The translations under genes were made by a program, and so were the position numbers. From Ignavibacteriota bacterium (lineage in GTDB: Bacteria; Bacteroidota; Ignavibacteria; Palsa-1295), in the NCBI GenBank assembly GCA_003151825.1, contig PLYO01000026.1, forward strand, positions 21,704 to 85,703: DNA of 64,000 nucleotides, in the 5' to 3' direction. The notes beneath the pieces are model-generated. The model saw only the letters and a list, made by a program, of their open reading frames with translations. It did no database searches and had not been told where the DNA came from. Positions 388-10,701 of this stretch are shown here, piece by piece. Within the stretch, counting starts at the first letter, position 1. Every line of letters starts with the position of its first letter.

Positions 388-514
388 GCGGCCCGTTTGT
401 AGAAGAGATTGTTTTTTTGGGACGAACAAGCTCCGTGAGGAGCGGCCAGTGAAAAGGCCGCTCCTCACGGAGCTTGGGATTTTAATTAGATAACGATTTC
501 TACAAACGGGCCAC
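388..514. repeat. MITE-like nested palindromic element, short copy: terminal inverted repeats flanking a perfect 20-bp-stem hairpin at 428-475
   Basis: The left arm GCGGCCCGTTTGTAGAAG (388-405) is the reverse complement of the right arm TTTCTACAAACGGGCCAC (497-514), with a 15-nt identical core. The internal hairpin is AAGCTCCGTGAGGAGCGGCC-agtgaaaa-GGCCGCTCCTCACGGAGCTT. A longer copy with the same ends and hairpin lies at 11850-12355. Confidence 0.6.
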
Positions 515-859
515 GGCTACCCCGTTGTCAGGCAGAAAAATCCCGAAAGCTTGTCCTGAGCCTGTCGAAGGGATGCCGTTGGTGCGGGGGGGAGTTTAAA
601 GTTCATGAACTGTGGCGTTTTTGAGCCGCTTTCGCCATTTGTGCCGCCAGAATTCATACTAAAACTTCTATATGAAAACTAATGCGCCGGAAATTGTCAA
701 TGAACAAGGACACGAACACTATTCTTATAGACACTGGTGCTCATCAAAGTACTTCCTAATATACGACACTTTTTCCGAGACGTCACGAAATCCGAAAAAA
801 GGGACACTTTCCTTCCTCAAATGCGTTTCATTATGGAAATTACGAAATTAGACTGATCC

Positions 860-2056
860 TTGTCAAAAGCAACTCCGCTATATATCGATTTATTCGCTGG
901 CTGCGGAGGGCTCTCGCTCGGCTTTTACAATAGCAACAAATGGCGGGGACTTCTCGCCATTGAAAAAAGTCCTCTCGCCTTCGAAACGTTTCAGTTTAAT
1001 CTTCTTGACAGAAAGCGCCACTTCGCATGGCCAGCTTGGTTCCCGAAACAAGCGAGCGATATTCGCACGGTTTTACGAGATCACAAAAACGAGCTTGCCG
1101 AACTTCGAGGAAAGATAGATCTCGTGACTGGTGGACCACCATGTCAAGGATTCTCGATGGCTGGGAAGAGGTTAATGACCGATAAAAGGAACAACTTAGT
1201 CCGGGATTATCTACGATTTGTTGAAATAGTTAAGCCTCGGCTAATTTTCTTCGAAAATGTTAAGGGTTTTACCATCCCGTTCGAGTCAGATAAAAAAAGT
1301 CCATCAAATTCCGTAATAAGCAGGCTTCGTGTTCTCGGTTACAATGTTGATTGGCGACTGATTGATTTTTCAGAATTTGGAATTCCTCAACGACGCCATC
1401 GGTTTATACTTGTGGGAACGCTAAATGGAAACGCTTCTAGTTTTTTTGAACAGATCGAAAAAAGAAAAAAAAGATTCTTGGGAGCTAAACGACTACCCAC
1501 TAATGCTTCAACAATTGATGGAATTGGGGATTTAGCGAGGCAGCATGGAGTTGTTGAACCGGAAAAACCCGCAAAATTTGCCTATGGGAACTATGGTGCA
1601 ATTACATCGAGGTATCAGAAGTATCTAAGCGAGAAAGTTGACCGCTCAATACGTCCCGATAGCCATCGATTTGCGAATCATACTGCCGAGAAAGAAGCAG
1701 TTATGAAGCTATTGCTTGCAACTTCTCGTAGGGGCAAGAAGGTTACCGAGGAAATCAGAGAGAAGTTTAAGATGAAGAAGCACAGCGTAACTATTCTCGA
1801 TCCTCATGATAAAGCACCAACTTTGACGACACTCCCCGACGATTGCTTGCATTACTCCGAACCTCGAATATTGACGGTAAGGGAATATGCAAGGCTTCAA
1901 AGTTTCCCCGACTGGTTCGAATTCAAGGGGAAGTACACTACAGGTGGGATACTTCGGAAAAAAGAAACTCCGCGATACACGCAAGTGGGGAATGCTATCC
2001 CACCGTTATTTGCTGAATTGGCTGGACGGGTCTTGTTTGAAATGAGCAATGAGTAA
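860..2056 (+). CDS. dcm: DNA (cytosine-5)-methyltransferase
   Basis: 398-aa ORF with a TTG start. All C5-MTase motifs are visible: I DLFAGCGGLSLGF, IV GGPPCQGFS, VI FFENV, VIII QRRHRFILVG, IX REYARLQSFPDWFEF, X QVGNAIPP. The stop overlaps the next start by 8 nt. Confidence 0.93.
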   Translation: MSKATPLYIDLFAGCGGLSLGFYNSNKWRGLLAIEKSPLAFETFQFNLLDRKRHFAWPAWFPKQASDIRTVLRDHKNELAELRGKIDLVTGGPPCQGFSMAGKRLMTDKRNNLVRDYLRFVEIVKPRLIFFENVKGFTIPFESDKKSPSNSVISRLRVLGYNVDWRLIDFSEFGIPQRRHRFILVGTLNGNASSFFEQIEKRKKRFLGAKRLPTNASTIDGIGDLARQHGVVEPEKPAKFAYGNYGAITSRYQKYLSEKVDRSIRPDSHRFANHTAEKEAVMKLLLATSRRGKKVTEEIREKFKMKKHSVTILDPHDKAPTLTTLPDDCLHYSEPRILTVREYARLQSFPDWFEFKGKYTTGGILRKKETPRYTQVGNAIPPLFAELAGRVLFEMSNE

Positions 2057-4328
2057 TAAGCTTAATTTTAAGGTAAGCTCAGGGCTAAAGGACATTATTG
2101 GCCGCGAGCTTATCACCGACGATTTTATTGCGATCTTTGAACTCGTTAAAAACGGGTTCGATGCTGGTGCCCGCAATGTGACCATTACCTTCAATGAAAT
2201 TTATGGAGAAAAGTCATCAATCGTGATTGAGGACGATGGAAAAGGAATGAGTTACGATGACTTGAAGGATAAATGGCTCTTTGTAGCGTACTCCGCTAAA
2301 CGAGAGGGAACTGAAGGGAATGAAGACAAGAATGATTACCGAAGCAATTTACGACCCGTCCGCGCATTTGCGGGCGCGAAGGGAATTGGGCGATTTTCAT
2401 GTGACCGGCTTGGGAAAGCTTTGATCCTAACTACGAAACGCCCTGGAAACGAGGCAACAACTGAGCGTATTCAGGTGGACTGGACCGATTTTGAAGGTCA
2501 TGCTCGGACGCTATTTGGGAATGTGCCGGTGACAAGAGTTGTGGTTCCTAAATCTTCACTTTCATATTCCCACGGGACCAAACTTGAAATTACTAATTTA
2601 AGGAGCAAATGGGAACGATCAAAATTACTCCGCCTAAAACGCTCACTTGAGAAGTTAATTAATCCGGTTGAAACTAACGATGATAAAAGTTTCTCCGTTA
2701 AGATTATCGCAAACGACGAATTAGAAGCAGATAAAAAACTTGGAAAAGATAATCCTGATAGAATAAATGGAATAATAAAGAATACAGTATTTGAGCGGCT
2801 AAAAATAAAGACCACAGAGATACACGTTGTAGTCTCTGAAGATGGCAGCACGGTTACCACTACACTAAGGGATCGAGGTGAAAAAATTTACTCGGTTACC
2901 GAGGTTAACACTTATAAAGTCCGCAACATTTCCATTTCACTTTTCAATCTCGATCCTCAGGCGAAGATGAATTTTACTCGTCTGATGGGAATAGAACCAG
3001 TGAATTTTGGCTCAGTCGTCATGTATAAGAATGGATTTAGGATTTATCCATTTGGGGAGAAGGGCGATGATTCATTCGGCCTAGACACACGCAAAGGACA
3101 AGGGTATGCCCGTTTTCTTGGGACGCGTGATCTAATTGGGAGGATTGAAATTCATGGCATAAATGAAAACCTGAAGGAGACATCGAGCCGCGTTGGAGGC
3201 CTTATCCGTAATGAGAGTTACGATGCTCTAATCGAACTCTTTTATGAGAAAGCTCTTCGTAGGTTGGAAAAGTATGTGGTCGATGTGATTCGATGGGGAG
3301 CAGAGTTAGAGGATCCAATTACAGGTGAGCGAAGAGAGATTCGACCATCGGACGTTAGGGAAGATATACTAAAAGTCTATGCGGGCCTAACATCGTCCAA
3401 AGATGTCATTGACTATGATTTCGCATTTGGTGTCGCCGAAAGTCGGCAAGAGAAAAGCTTAAGCAAGCTATTAAAAAATATTTCGAGAATCGCGGAAGAA
3501 AGCAATAATCCCAATTTTTCACGAGACGCACGCACAATTGCTAAACGTGTAGGAGAATTGCAGGTCGAAACATCCGCAAAAGGAAAGGCTCTTGCTAAAG
3601 CTGAGGATGAACTTCAACGGACAGTCGGTGAGAACTTATTCCTTCGTTCAGTTACAACAACTGACATAAAGGAAGTCCTCGGAATGCAACATCAGATAGG
3701 GCACTCTACCCAACGAATTGAGGATGAGCTCACAACACTAAGAGAATCCGTCGATAAAGGGATAGATGGTAAACGCCTTAAGTCTCACCTAGAAATTATT
3801 GCGCTTGAAAATAAGAAAATAGCTACTATAGCTCACTTCGTTACAAAAGCTAATTTCAACCTCAATTCCGTCTCTATTACTCAGGATTTGGTTTCATTTA
3901 TTATTCAATACGTAGAAAATGTTTATAAGGACTATCCTCACTTGAAAGTTAATCGAAAGTTACCAACGATTATCATTACTCAAAATGGTAGCCCAACATT
4001 CCGTCTAAAGTTTAGTCCTTTAGAAATCGTCATCATAATCGATAACCTATTGAGCAATGCTCAAAAGGCTGGTGCGCGCATGGTAAACATGGAAATTTCC
4101 GTGGGGAAAGGTGAATTCACGCTTCTTGTTTCAGATAATGGCAAAGGTATCCCGGAAGACAAACTTGATAAAATTTTTGACTTTGGGTATACAACTACAA
4201 ACGGTTCTGGCATCGGCCTTTATCATGTAAAGCAATTGGTTTCTAAGCTTCATGGGAGAGTGAAAGTATCATCCGACCCTTCAGGGACAAAATTCTTAAT
4301 CACCTTGAAAAATGACTCTACAGTATAA
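2049..4328 (+). CDS. Soluble dual-GHKL protein: N-terminal MORC/HATPase_c_3-like ATPase fused to a C-terminal histidine-kinase catalytic core
   Basis: 759-aa ORF. The N-terminal Bergerat fold shows N-box FELVKNGFDAGA, G1 IEDDGKGM and G2 GAKGIGRFS. The C-terminal histidine-kinase ATPase shows N-box DNLLSNAQKAGA, G1 SDNGKGI, F-box IFDFGYTT and G2 GSGIGL. It is preceded by a coiled-coil-like stretch and a His-bearing helix, GMQHQIGHSTQRIEDEL. No transmembrane segment is seen. Confidence 0.8.
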   Translation: MSNKLNFKVSSGLKDIIGRELITDDFIAIFELVKNGFDAGARNVTITFNEIYGEKSSIVIEDDGKGMSYDDLKDKWLFVAYSAKREGTEGNEDKNDYRSNLRPVRAFAGAKGIGRFSCDRLGKALILTTKRPGNEATTERIQVDWTDFEGHARTLFGNVPVTRVVVPKSSLSYSHGTKLEITNLRSKWERSKLLRLKRSLEKLINPVETNDDKSFSVKIIANDELEADKKLGKDNPDRINGIIKNTVFERLKIKTTEIHVVVSEDGSTVTTTLRDRGEKIYSVTEVNTYKVRNISISLFNLDPQAKMNFTRLMGIEPVNFGSVVMYKNGFRIYPFGEKGDDSFGLDTRKGQGYARFLGTRDLIGRIEIHGINENLKETSSRVGGLIRNESYDALIELFYEKALRRLEKYVVDVIRWGAELEDPITGERREIRPSDVREDILKVYAGLTSSKDVIDYDFAFGVAESRQEKSLSKLLKNISRIAEESNNPNFSRDARTIAKRVGELQVETSAKGKALAKAEDELQRTVGENLFLRSVTTTDIKEVLGMQHQIGHSTQRIEDELTTLRESVDKGIDGKRLKSHLEIIALENKKIATIAHFVTKANFNLNSVSITQDLVSFIIQYVENVYKDYPHLKVNRKLPTIIITQNGSPTFRLKFSPLEIVIIIDNLLSNAQKAGARMVNMEISVGKGEFTLLVSDNGKGIPEDKLDKIFDFGYTTTNGSGIGLYHVKQLVSKLHGRVKVSSDPSGTKFLITLKNDSTV

Positions 4329-5310
4329 TATCCTTTGGTTCGAAGACGACGAGGCAGTAATCAGCGCATTGTCCCCCCAAATTAGGGATCATGTCACTGG
4401 TTTAGGATTCGAATTCAATTTCGAAAAATACGACGATGATACATCATTGGAAGAAAGGGTTTCCAAACGTGATTACGATCTAATTTTGACAGACCTCAAC
4501 CTTCACGACGGCGCTCTCGGCGACACACTAATTAAGAAAATCCGGGAAGCTGATATTCTTACGGAAGTCCTTCTTTATTCATCGAACGGTGATGCAATAG
4601 AGAAGGCGCATCGCCGGAATGCAATGATTGAAAGAATATCATGGGCTGTCGGTTCCGGAAATGACTTGCTGGAAAAAATAAAGGGTATTATTTCACTCAC
4701 GGTTCGCAAGGTTCAGGATCTTAATAATATGAGAGGCCTTGTTGTAGCTGAGGCTATTAGCCTTGAAGCACAAATAAAAGACATTCTCGTTGACTACTTC
4801 TCAGCAATACCTGCCGGGGATCCTGACACCGAGAAAGTTATGGAAAGGATTTATAAATACAGGGTTGAATCCGCTGAAAAAACCCTCAAAAGGTTAGTTG
4901 AGAAGTTTAATGCGAAAATGCTGGTTGCCTTAATCGAGGATGACGCCCTCTTTACTGCTAACAATGTAATCGAAAGCATAGAAAGCATACTCAATGATAA
5001 ATCCAAAATTTTGAATGTAAGAATTAGTCGAGAATCTAATCCTGATGCTAAGAAAAGCTTAGAAGAATCTAAGGAGAAGATACAGGAACTCCAAAATAAT
5101 TTAAAGCTATTCAAGGATGAAATAATTGAAATTCGAAATACTTTAGCACACGTTAAAGAGGAGGTTCTTGAAGACGGTAGCACCGTGTTACAGAGTAGGA
5201 GGAAGGGGGCAACCCCGATTTTAGTGAATGATGAAACATATGTGAAAATGCGAACTGATATAGCAAAACATAAAAAGAATCTCGCCATAATTGCAGAGCA
5301 TCTTTCATGA
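4312..5310 (+). CDS. Receiver (REC)-like domain protein with a helical C-terminal HEPN-like domain (putative RNase effector)
   Basis: 332-aa ORF whose start overlaps the upstream stop by 17 nt. The N-terminus is CheY-like: NILWFEDDE supplies the acidic pair and DLILTDLNL supplies a candidate phospho-acceptor D61 (nt 4492-4494). The C-terminal ~200 aa are helical and contain IEIRNTLAHV (R275-x4-H280, nt 5134-5151), which matches the HEPN Rx4-6H signature. Confidence 0.7.
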   Translation: MTLQYNILWFEDDEAVISALSPQIRDHVTGLGFEFNFEKYDDDTSLEERVSKRDYDLILTDLNLHDGALGDTLIKKIREADILTEVLLYSSNGDAIEKAHRRNAMIERISWAVGSGNDLLEKIKGIISLTVRKVQDLNNMRGLVVAEAISLEAQIKDILVDYFSAIPAGDPDTEKVMERIYKYRVESAEKTLKRLVEKFNAKMLVALIEDDALFTANNVIESIESILNDKSKILNVRISRESNPDAKKSLEESKEKIQELQNNLKLFKDEIIEIRNTLAHVKEEVLEDGSTVLQSRRKGATPILVNDETYVKMRTDIAKHKKNLAIIAEHLS

Positions 5311-5355
5311 TTTCATGATCAAACTTGATTCCGCTTGACCATCCTTTAATAGAGA

Positions 5356-5378
5356 GGCGGGAACTCCCGCCTTTTATT
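5356..5378 (+). terminator. Rho-independent terminator closing the three-gene operon
   Basis: GGCGGGA-ac-TCCCGCC stem followed by TTTTATT, 46 nt after the stop at 5310. Confidence 0.7.
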
Positions 5379-5587
5379 AACGTCTTGCGTACCCTACATC
5401 AATTCTCGCCCCTCTTCTTCCATGAGCTTGTTGACCTAATGGCGCTGTTCCCATTCTTGGACGATGTGCCACACCGGCTTCGCATACGCGCTATCCCCAG
5501 CGCGCCGCGGCCTCCGCTGTTTGCGGAAGAATCGCGCGAAATAGCGGTTATTCTTTTCACCTATTGTGTGTTTAATCGCGCCAGAAT

Positions 5588-9774: not shown

Positions 9775-10701
9775 CTATTCTTCTTCAGTGGAATTCCCTG
9801 TTTCACCTTCGGACAAAAGGGGTGTCGCCTGTTTGCCGAGGTAGTTTTGGCGTGTCACAACCGGTTTGCCAGACTTGACTTCGAGTTGCAGCCGTGCGCT
9901 CCCGGCAATAGTGCCTCCTTCTTTTGCGGCATTTTTATTAGGGTTGAATCCCACGGCATCTTTATTCCGCGCGATCTCGGTTGTCGCGGCTTCTCCGAGC
10001 ATGGTGAAGATGAGTTCCAAATCGGTCATGTGGTCGCGGAGATTTTCGCGTTTCAGGCCCTTGAGATTTTTGTATTCCGCTGGCGTAAGCCCGAAGGTTG
10101 CCTTTGAAATTTCGGCCGTTAAAATGGCAAACTCTATCCCTTCTTTAACTCCTCGCGACTTCCATTCGTCCGTCAGTTCATCCCGGACGGCGACCGAGCG
10201 AACGCGTTTTTCGATCCAATCGGCGGAGTAACCTTTTTGTTTATAGAGGTCGCGCATTCGTTGTTGCGCCAGCTCGGGATTTTCAATTTCCTGAACGCGC
10301 TCGTAGCCAACTTTGGCAAGCCATTGCTTGAAGGGTTCAGCCTTGGGACTGGGTAGAGACTGTATTACCCGAAAAGCGCTTTCTGTATTGACCACTTCGG
10401 TCTCGTAAAGCTTCCCATCCGATGCTGGGATTTTCAGTTGTCGACAAAGTGTCGACAACTCGAAACCTGTCGCTTCTTTTTCGCGCCGCTTCATTCGGTA
10501 CCAATAATCGCGTGGATTTGGGCTGTCGGTCAAAGCGCCCACTATATCAACGACCGAGAAAAACCATTGCTCGTCCAGCCAAACGCGGCGAATCTGCTTC
10601 GCGCCAAAAACAACGATCTTCCCTTCCGATTCCGATTTTGCTTTTTTACTCATTGTGTAATTTAGGGTGCCCATCATCCAAATGACACGATACGAACTCA
10701 C
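9775..10701 (-). CDS. BRO-N domain / DNA-damage-inducible protein D (DinD)-like protein
   Basis: FGAKQIRRVWLDEQWFFSVVDIVGALTDSPNPRDYW is a typical BRO-N motif, followed by a DinD-like helical region. The maximal ORF start at 10701 overlaps the hprK stop (ATGA). An alternative ATG at 10653 gives MSKKAKSE. Confidence 0.75.
   Translation of the reverse strand: MSSYRVIWMMGTLNYTMSKKAKSESEGKIVVFGAKQIRRVWLDEQWFFSVVDIVGALTDSPNPRDYWYRMKRREKEATGFELSTLCRQLKIPASDGKLYETEVVNTESAFRVIQSLPSPKAEPFKQWLAKVGYERVQEIENPELAQQRMRDLYKQKGYSADWIEKRVRSVAVRDELTDEWKSRGVKEGIEFAILTAEISKATFGLTPAEYKNLKGLKRENLRDHMTDLELIFTMLGEAATTEIARNKDAVGFNPNKNAAKEGGTIAGSARLQLEVKSGKPVVTRQNYLGKQATPLLSEGETGNSTEEE

Follow-up and report, generated by a model that had tools for sequence, protein, structure and literature searches.

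A receiver protein with a HEPN-like C-terminal domain as candidate effector of a methylase-linked kinase cassette in an Ignavibacteriota bacterium

Two-component-system-like pairs of a Response_reg_2 (PF19192) receiver and a HEF_HK (PF19191) kinase have been described by comparative genomics only; a regulatory link to restriction-modification (R-M) was suggested, the region after the receiver was left without an assigned function, and HEPN domains are unmentioned (Bellieny-Rabelo, Pretorius & Moleleki 2021, Genome Biol Evol, PMC8011034). Detocs is a phage-defence system in which a kinase acts on a receiver-effector protein. Its defence is abolished when the phosphorylated His of the kinase or the phosphorylated Asp of the receiver is mutated, and its effectors are interchangeable, comprising PNP, restriction endonuclease (REase), TOPRIM and transmembrane versions (Rousset et al. 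2023, bioRxiv 10.1101/2023.01.24.525353). Here we analyse a three-gene cassette in a 64,000-nt stretch of DNA from an Ignavibacteriota bacterium (GenBank assembly GCA_003151825.1, contig PLYO01000026.1, positions 21,704 to 85,703 of the forward strand; hereafter the window). The cassette encodes a C5 cytosine DNA methylase, a soluble kinase with an N-terminal GHKL ATPase module of the paraMORC type, and a response regulator in which a receiver is followed by a mostly helical domain with the motif RNTLAH. On balance, we lean towards the view that the regulator is the effector of a methylation-linked two-component conflict system and works as a phosphorylation-activated RNase. The domain fused to the receiver is the sole candidate effector in the conserved three-gene unit, and we consider it likely, with good confidence, to be a HEPN-like RNase domain.

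The cassette is similar to the Response_reg_2/HEF_HK pairs in layout. A C5 methylase lies upstream, the soluble kinase has HATPase_c_3 and HATPase_c on either side of a DHp-like helix that contains a core His, and the adjacent receiver-like protein comes last; enrichment near R-M genes such as HNH_2 and a wide phyletic spread are further common features. However, PF19192 and PF19191 are both unmatched by the window proteins at E≤1, and likewise by ten other proteins, from the family or its sisters, at E≤0.01 (the newest models in our Pfam copy are from 2025, and PF19191 and PF19192, released ~2020-21, are assumed to be present in it). In addition, the window receiver is nearer to canonical Response_reg and is without the β5 Lys, which is reported to be conserved in the published family (PMC8011034). 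Because neither Pfam model is matched, the window family represents a sister family or an unrecognised extension of Response_reg_2/HEF_HK.

With Detocs the cassette shares a sensor kinase and a response regulator that carries a cell-arresting effector in place of a DNA-binding output, although in the cassette this effector role is predicted from sequence. Detocs differs in sensing through TPR repeats, in having a third protein, DtcB, which is a stand-alone buffer receiver, and in having no methylase; the preprint text consulted lists no HEPN effector. The cassette, in contrast, has a GHKL/paraMORC sensor and an obligatory C5 methylase, and contains neither a TPR domain nor a stand-alone receiver gene.

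A third comparison is with the HEPN RNases of the Abi2/Swt1 and RiboL-PSP groups, all-α domains found within R-M and Abi systems, with R-N-x-x-A-H at the end of the third core helix and a variable insert before it (PMC3710099). [quoted passage not shown] The survey of these domains describes no receiver-HEPN fusion and no kinase partner, and uses the word 'receiver' once, in another context (Anantharaman et al. 2013, PMC3710099). Moreover, the similarity of the window protein to these groups is sub-threshold, its family has the additional residues R141-G142 and R314, and a hairpin after the motif, as predicted in our models, is described for Csx1 only (PMC3710099).

An earlier note on this DNA had described the last open reading frame (ORF) of the cassette, at 4312-5310 (+), as a receiver joined to a HEPN-like domain, pointing to E11-D12-D13, DLILTDLNL with D61, VLLYSS (residues 86-91) and RNTLAH (nucleotides 5134-5151). 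The numbering of all of these is correct, and so is its view of residues 1-120 as CheY-like. In an AlphaFold2 (AF2) model of the full-length regulator, built with 55 homologues in the alignment (mean predicted local distance difference test score, pLDDT, 82.5; predicted TM score 0.73), residues 4-134 form a canonical (β-α)5 unit. Foldseek superposes the full model on many solved receivers with a target-normalised TM of ~0.75 and root-mean-square deviations of 2.6-3.5 Å, and returned receiver domains alone. The Pfam model Response_reg (PF00072) matches the window protein at E=1.6e-6 (28.7 bits, just under the curated cut-off of 30.2 bits). Conservation was assessed in 137 representatives that are mutually at most ~50% identical; 119 of them match Response_reg (best 4.8e-12), and a family profile retrieves response regulators from the PDB down to 5e-8. 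D61, the predicted phospho-acceptor, is invariant in all 137. Position 11 is Glu or Asp in 136, position 12 is Asp in 110 and Asn in 25, and position 90 is Ser or Thr in 136. The remark that a β5 Lys is not obvious also holds. In the equivalent column, 103 of the 137 have Arg and 7 have Lys; the window protein has S115 there, and in its subgroup R108 at the start of β5 stands in for the basic residue. One of the two β5 sites is basic in 130 members. The identity of the domain as a receiver is certain; it is a slightly atypical one.

The conserved residues of the regulator extend into the C-terminal domain. Besides D61 and Y89, the residues R141, G142, R275 and H280 are invariant in 137 of 137 representatives; N276 (134, the other three being Asp), A279 (132) and R314 (135) are nearly so, as are G70 and R78 in the receiver. 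Thus the identification of RNTLAH as the R-N-x-x-A-H form of the HEPN motif stands, and the conservation of its Arg and His among homologues, singled out beforehand as a point to check, is complete. The pattern R[ND]x[LMFYI][AGS]H occurs in 64 of 64 full-length regulator ORFs from genomes of different species, and the seven regulator ORFs without it are all truncated by contig ends or frameshifts. In shuffles of the regulator, RN..AH arises in 0.13% and a loose Rx4-6H in 63%, so that only the specific RN..AH form, together with its invariance, is informative.

The family is large. A homologue search returned 59 mostly full-length proteins of ~300-350 aa, and an exhaustive search with a C-terminal-domain profile retrieved 907 representatives of clusters at 50% identity with E≤1e-3; 531 of them reach E≤1e-10. 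In each of the 150 top-scoring representatives, the C-terminal domain comes after an N-terminal segment of ~115 residues. The sources name these proteins 'CheY-like chemotaxis protein', 'response regulator' or 'hypothetical protein'; one homologue of 349 aa (P0011) is named 'ribosomal protein S3' by one source, an evident misannotation.

In both AF2 models, of the full protein and of the C-terminal domain only (pLDDT 83.3), helices span residues 137-164, 171-197, 201-209, 216-240 and 244-279, followed by a β-hairpin (281-295), a strand (303-305) and a last helix (307-331). The expectation of an all-helical domain at residues ~135-332 is therefore right for most of its length, and fails for the hairpin and the strand that follow the motif. 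Residues ~165-240 are the least conserved, vary in length and have lower pLDDT. In HEPN domains, core helix 3 ends with the Rx4-6H motif, which extends into the beginning of the loop towards helix 4. Helices 2 and 3 are often separated by an insert, and the residue after the Arg is typically Asn, Asp or His; in Csx1 a β-hairpin comes right after the motif (Anantharaman et al. 2013, PMC3710099). At the level of secondary structure, the window protein appears to fit HEPN in its predicted topology and its motif, because the motif ends helix 244-279, a loop and the last helix follow, and a variable insert lies upstream. The complete Rx4H motif with Asn after Arg is the signature tied to active RNases in the HEPN literature, in which some families, such as MtlR and the NT-associated HEPN, are non-catalytic (PMC3710099). 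R141-G142 and the R314/H320 pair in the last helix are additions to what is canonically described for HEPN; R141-G142 may contribute to the active site or to a dimer interface.

Weak profile matches of the C-terminal domain gather on HEPN models. Among 31 C-terminal domains, Pfam matches are to Swt1 (4), Apea (3), Abi_2 (2) and HepT (1). The 137 full proteins give Swt1 (7), Apea (3), RiboL-PSP (2) and Abi_2 (1). In 38 independent C-terminal domains from species genomes, RiboL-PSP is matched by 5 (best E=1.3e-5), Swt1 by 5 and MAE_28990 by 2, and these three families, which have the most matches in that set, all belong to the HEPN clan. The weak PADLOC matches are mostly to HEPN-bearing models (Cas13-ApeA, CARF_HEPN, Csx1/Csm6, RTasHEPN and Cas13a/b/c). 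In one member, residues 186-301 align with positions 34-162 of the RiboL-PSP profile (191 positions in all), indicating, since the alignment covers ~115 residues, that the similarity extends past the motif. The coordinates of the cassette and of its features are collected in Table 1.

Table 1. Features of the cassette and its surroundings, in window coordinates; functional assignments of domains and sites are predictions.
Feature	Position	Strand	Remarks
C5 cytosine DNA methyltransferase gene	860..2056	+	398 aa; cassette gene 1; PPCQGFS catalytic Cys motif, ENV, QRR and GNA(I)PP motifs visible
GHKL (paraMORC-like)-histidine kinase gene	2049..4328	+	759 aa, soluble; cassette gene 2
N-terminal GHKL (HATPase_c_3) ATPase domain of kinase	2127..2579	+	Bergerat-fold motifs intact: N35, D38, D62xGxG66, G112xG114; proposed sensor module
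Codon of H548 (LGMQHQIGH) of kinase	3690..3692	+	Invariant His in predicted DHp helix; putative autophosphorylation site
HK-type catalytic ATP-binding domain of kinase	4023..4313	+	N box N666, N670; G1 box D696xGxG700; G2 box G719xGxG723
REC-HEPN-like response regulator gene	4312..5310	+	ATG start, 332 aa plus stop; cassette gene 3, last of operon
Receiver domain, residues 1-134	4312..4713	+	β1 4-10, β3 57-61, β4 85-90, β5 109-113, α5 117-134; E11/D12, D61, S90; without β5 Lys
Codon of D61, predicted phospho-acceptor	4492..4494	+	C-terminal end of β3; invariant 137/137
C-terminal helical domain, residues 135-332, putative HEPN RNase	4714..5307	+	AF2 models; 907 representatives at 50% identity
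R141-G142 in QDxNNxRGLVxAE	4732..4737	+	Start of the domain's first helix; invariant 137/137, also invariant in a second alignment
RNTLAH (R275-N276-T-L-A-H280), Rx4H with Asn after Arg	5134..5151	+	Last turn of helix 244-279
Second basic/His pair in last helix, R314 and H320 (R-x5-H/Y)	5251..5271	+	R314 135/137; position 320 is His in 98, Tyr in 34
Low-GC (guanine + cytosine) island	~500..5500 (boundaries approximate)	.	GC 0.39-0.45 vs 0.53-0.56 on both sides; the cassette's three genes alone inside

The kinase begins with a GHKL ATPase of the paraMORC/MutL type and ends with a histidine kinase (HK) catalytic domain; between the two lie a conserved middle region, then a coiled coil and a DHp-like helix. 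Pfam HATPase_c_3 matches residues 27-177 (7.3e-27) and HATPase_c matches residues 659-755 (2e-27). The N-terminus is homologous to type II restriction enzymes of the BbrUII/HgiDII family (NCBIfam, 4.4e-24; PADLOC REase_II, 6.7e-17), in which the enzyme is likewise paired with a C5 methylase. However, the homology is confined to the first ~210-220 residues, the score is 85 bits vs a family cut-off of 550 bits, and the C-terminal half of the window kinase is a histidine kinase. A kinase-fused paraMORC is not described in the analysis of the paraMORC GHKL ATPases of R-M systems (Iyer, Abhiman & Aravind 2008, PMC2292703). In an alignment of the window kinase with three distant orthologues (42-49% identity), H548 and the N, G1 and G2 boxes are invariant, and the N-terminal Bergerat motifs are intact.

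The methylase is matched by Pfam DNA_methylase (E=5e-55), NCBIfam dcm (5.7e-48) and PADLOC MTase_II (1.9e-74). Its stop overlaps the kinase start by 8 nt, and the kinase stop overlaps the regulator start by 17 nt; the latter overlap suggests translational coupling of kinase and regulator. Intact catalytic motifs are present in all three cassette proteins, and a nuclease domain was not detected in any of them with Pfam, PADLOC or NCBIfam. Downstream of the low-GC island, the annotated genes are housekeeping ones (amino-acid permease, IspD and HPr kinase). Judged from its sequence, this island of a methylase, an unusual soluble kinase and a receiver-effector looks like R-M-style defence signalling by phosphorelay that would attack RNA rather than DNA.

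The three-gene unit is conserved over a wide range of organisms. Exact protein look-up gave six loci (from GCA_009612815.1, a Paceibacterota bin, Alkaliphilus, a gut metagenome and other metagenome assemblies), each with the order methylase, GHKL-kinase and receiver-X and with genes that overlap or abut. When each species was represented by one genome, scanning gave 72 loci, distributed over Bacteroidota, Bacillota, Patescibacteria, Campylobacterota, Pseudomonadota, Desulfobacterota, Sericytochromatia, Lentisphaerae, Methanoperedens, Bathyarchaeota and Thermoplasmata. Hidden Markov models of the cassette proteins place the kinase immediately upstream of the regulator in 69 of the 70 loci with sequence; they place the methylase upstream in 55 of 60 loci and anywhere in the locus in 59 of these 60. 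No further gene is conserved throughout, and the downstream neighbours vary. Other defence genes are frequent among the neighbours (AbiH, HNH_2, McrB-like AAA_5, extra methylases and paraMORC+Mrr-SNF2), and the distribution of the cassette is island-like and horizontally spread, often beside such genes. Homologous GHKL-kinases on plasmids pair with receivers bearing other outputs, or with a receiver followed by an HNH nuclease. Because these kinases pair with different outputs, whatever follows the receiver behaves like an effector that can be exchanged.

A five-step mechanism can be proposed for the cassette. Host (self) DNA would be marked by the C5 methylase. The N-terminal paraMORC-type GHKL module of the kinase would serve as an intracellular sensor, for which the signal would most plausibly be unmethylated or foreign DNA, because the module has restriction-enzyme ancestry and an obligatory methylase partner. 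The activated kinase would autophosphorylate H548, and the phosphoryl group would pass to D61 of the receiver. Phosphorylated receivers would then dimerise, so that the R275-N276-x3-H280 motifs of two HEPN-like domains form a composite, metal-independent RNase site. RNA cleavage would finally arrest the cell, either upon infection (abortive infection) or after loss of the methylase. HEPN RNases work as dimers, and this mode of action, together with general two-component knowledge and the Detocs precedent, is the analogy from which we infer the steps from signal to RNase activity; the signal identity, phosphotransfer, dimerisation-dependent activation, RNase activity and defence phenotype are all of this kind. 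A bolder generalisation is that the GHKL module reads DNA methylation, that the attached kinase phosphorylates a receiver-HEPN RNA degrader, and that a His-Asp phosphorelay thereby replaces the 'restriction' arm in a widespread, unnamed abortive-infection system. We offer it tentatively, as less likely than not.

Several results weigh against the proposed mechanism. The window protein itself has no HEPN match in Pfam or NCBIfam, its best hit of HEPN type being a PADLOC Cas13a fragment at E=0.007. A Foldseek search of the C-terminal model against PDB and BFVD gave nothing at E≤0.001 and no HEPN domain among the best 50; the best matches are designed or generic helical bundles at E≥0.015. The recognisable HEPN four-helix bundle expected in the earlier note was thus not found. 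C-terminal sequence profiles yielded nothing significant in the PDB, and PDB searches with the full protein and with C-terminal, family and motif-centred profiles returned receivers only, plus a CRISPR-associated chain at E=0.81. When compared by hhalign with a profile of HepT (DUF86), the domain scored a probability of 0.2-3%, with RNTLAH in register with RNIAVH and the motif alone aligned. This HepT profile was built from a seed that is 90-94% identical to real HepT proteins, all annotated PF01934, and HepT is probably too distant a family for such a comparison. The receiver phosphochemistry could be atypical, because the canonical β5 Lys is missing. The DHp region of the kinase matches no Pfam DHp family (no HisKA-type model), and H548 is accordingly assigned to a DHp helix by position and conservation. 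No PADLOC system model covers the C-terminal part of the kinase or the regulator, with the presence of Detocs models in that PADLOC release not checked. Finally, the nature of the signal is read purely from methylase linkage and REase homology.

Taken with the positive evidence, these results leave the main claims of the earlier note standing in part. The comparison with HEPN profiles does give weak, family-level matches to the HEPN clan, the best being RiboL-PSP at E=1.3e-5, and gives none for the window protein. A receiver joined to a HEPN-like RNase remains the best-supported reading of the probable cassette effector, as the sole candidate, with no fold match to HEPN in PDB or BFVD. A phosphorylation-gated RNase, presented there as an unusual output, is less unprecedented than implied, because phosphorylation-gated effectors are an established concept from Detocs and the cassette class was described in 2021.

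The same machine could primarily be a selfish addiction module. Loss of the island, or dilution of the methylase, would activate the kinase, and the RNase would arrest or kill the segregant, as in the post-segregational killing by type II R-M. The tight linkage of the methylase (59 of 60 loci), the compact, horizontally spread low-GC island and the occurrence of relatives on conjugative plasmids beside toxin-antitoxin (TA) genes all suit such a module, and selfish behaviour of R-M is established knowledge, discussed in PMC8011034. However, addiction is compatible with a defence role rather than exclusive of it, and the neighbours are frequently other defence genes. We regard addiction as an unlikely primary role.

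No more probable, in our judgement, is a two-component system with a regulatory role, in which R-M or other genes would be controlled through a non-catalytic output, with the conserved Arg, Asn and His used for binding protein or nucleic acid. Regulation is the published interpretation of the related Response_reg_2/HEF_HK pairs (PMC8011034), and both the missing structural match to HEPN in PDB and BFVD and the existence of non-catalytic HEPN families such as MtlR and the NT-associated HEPN (PMC3710099) would be in keeping with it. Yet Pfam finds no DNA-binding domain in the window protein or the 137 members, and the complete Rx4H with Asn after Arg, the signature of active HEPN RNases in the literature, is invariant. 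In addition, since the downstream neighbours vary, there is no conserved target gene beyond the three-gene unit, and sister systems replace the output by nucleases or add nucleases to it.

The least probable alternative is a non-HEPN helical module that has converged on R-N-x-x-A-H, such as a phosphoryl-handling, HPt-like bundle using H280 or a novel enzyme: the negative Foldseek fold search, the insignificant hhalign comparison with HepT and the additional invariant R141-G142 and R314, which suggest a more elaborate site, would allow it, but the weak matches converge on many independent HEPN models and no other clan (one at E=1.3e-5), the predicted topology appears to fit HEPN, and no Hpt family is among the profile matches. 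HPt domains carry their His in the middle of a helix, in an HxxKG context. This context is absent around H280, and an HPt-like reading of that residue is, for this reason and for the lack of Hpt families among the matches, judged unlikely.

What is already known comprises the cassette class (described in 2021 by bioinformatics, without the output domain), the phosphorylation-gated effectors of Detocs and HEPN effectors as such. If the proposed mechanism is true, the cassette would join self-marking by a methylase, two-component phosphotransfer and abortive infection by a HEPN RNase, a combination not yet demonstrated. It would also give a concrete output to the orphan pairs of 2021 that link two-component-like, paraMORC and R-M genes, widen the Detocs principle to another class of sensor, unrelated to the first, provide a simple and genetically tractable RNase that is switched on by Asp phosphorylation, and help to find out what is sensed by the MORC-like GHKL modules of prokaryotes. 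With 907 clusters at 50% identity, the family is a sizeable one; it occurs in bacteria and some archaea, and is absent from the defence-system models searched (PADLOC).

Some further observations concern other collections and plasmids. The PADLOC candidate PDC-M60B is weakly matched by 5 of the 137 family members (best E=5.2e-5); membership was not assigned, as neither the window protein nor four Bacillota members match it and their kinases match no PDC-M60 model. A machine-learning survey from 2026 contains an unvalidated predicted system with HATPase and REC domains, which may or may not correspond to the cassette. A tblastn search of plasmids with the regulator found nothing, and one with the consensus motif segment gave a single match in a putAbiC membrane protein, which was rejected as chance. 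Sister systems do occur on plasmids, with relatives on conjugative ones beside TA genes. On the Campylobacter jejuni plasmid p15597A-2 (L013:5001-9454), the receiver is fused to an unrelated, β-rich domain of ~200 aa, and dcm is on the opposite strand. The Deinococcus gobiensis plasmid P2 (L014:3544-8511) carries an Eco57I-type (N6-type) methylase, a short receiver protein and an HNH nuclease. On a Stenotrophomonas rhizophila plasmid (L012:3745-8459), a 212-aa receiver-like ORF and a 226-aa ORF are left unannotated in the plasmid gene table.

In the window, a perfect 20-bp inverted repeat, aagctccgtgaggagcggcc ... ggccgctcctcacggagctt, with an 8-nt loop and T-rich runs on either flank lies at 428-475, immediately before the low-GC island; it may act as a bidirectional terminator or mark where the island is bounded. 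A promoter and terminator scan stayed at background level, and Rfam and tRNA scans of the first 12 kb of the window gave no matches. A Bro-N domain protein (9775-10701, - strand; Pfam 1.7e-8) is encoded among housekeeping genes ~4.5 kb downstream of the cassette, and two ORF6N-domain genes are near the cassette of a related locus (L001).

Recurrent genes next to the regulator were noted in subsets of the related loci. In members from Campylobacterota and SUP05 (L041, L053, L059, L065, L067 and L068), a metallophosphatase-like gene (IIYGDIHG...) overlaps the end of the regulator, with an ORF that begins 3-24 nt ahead of the regulator stop; this gene may encode a fourth component, for example a phosphatase or a nucleotide-signal enzyme. 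An HNH_2-type nuclease directly follows the regulator in L029, L037, L039, L054, L057 and L011 (8894-9721), and a small HAD-like ORF comes after it in four proteobacterial loci (L066, L076, L080 and L081). Downstream and on the opposite strand, L015, L016, L030, L031 and L001 (12993-13673) encode an HhH-GPD/EndoIII-like glycosylase, which may repair the T:G mismatches that result from deamination of 5-methylcytosine.

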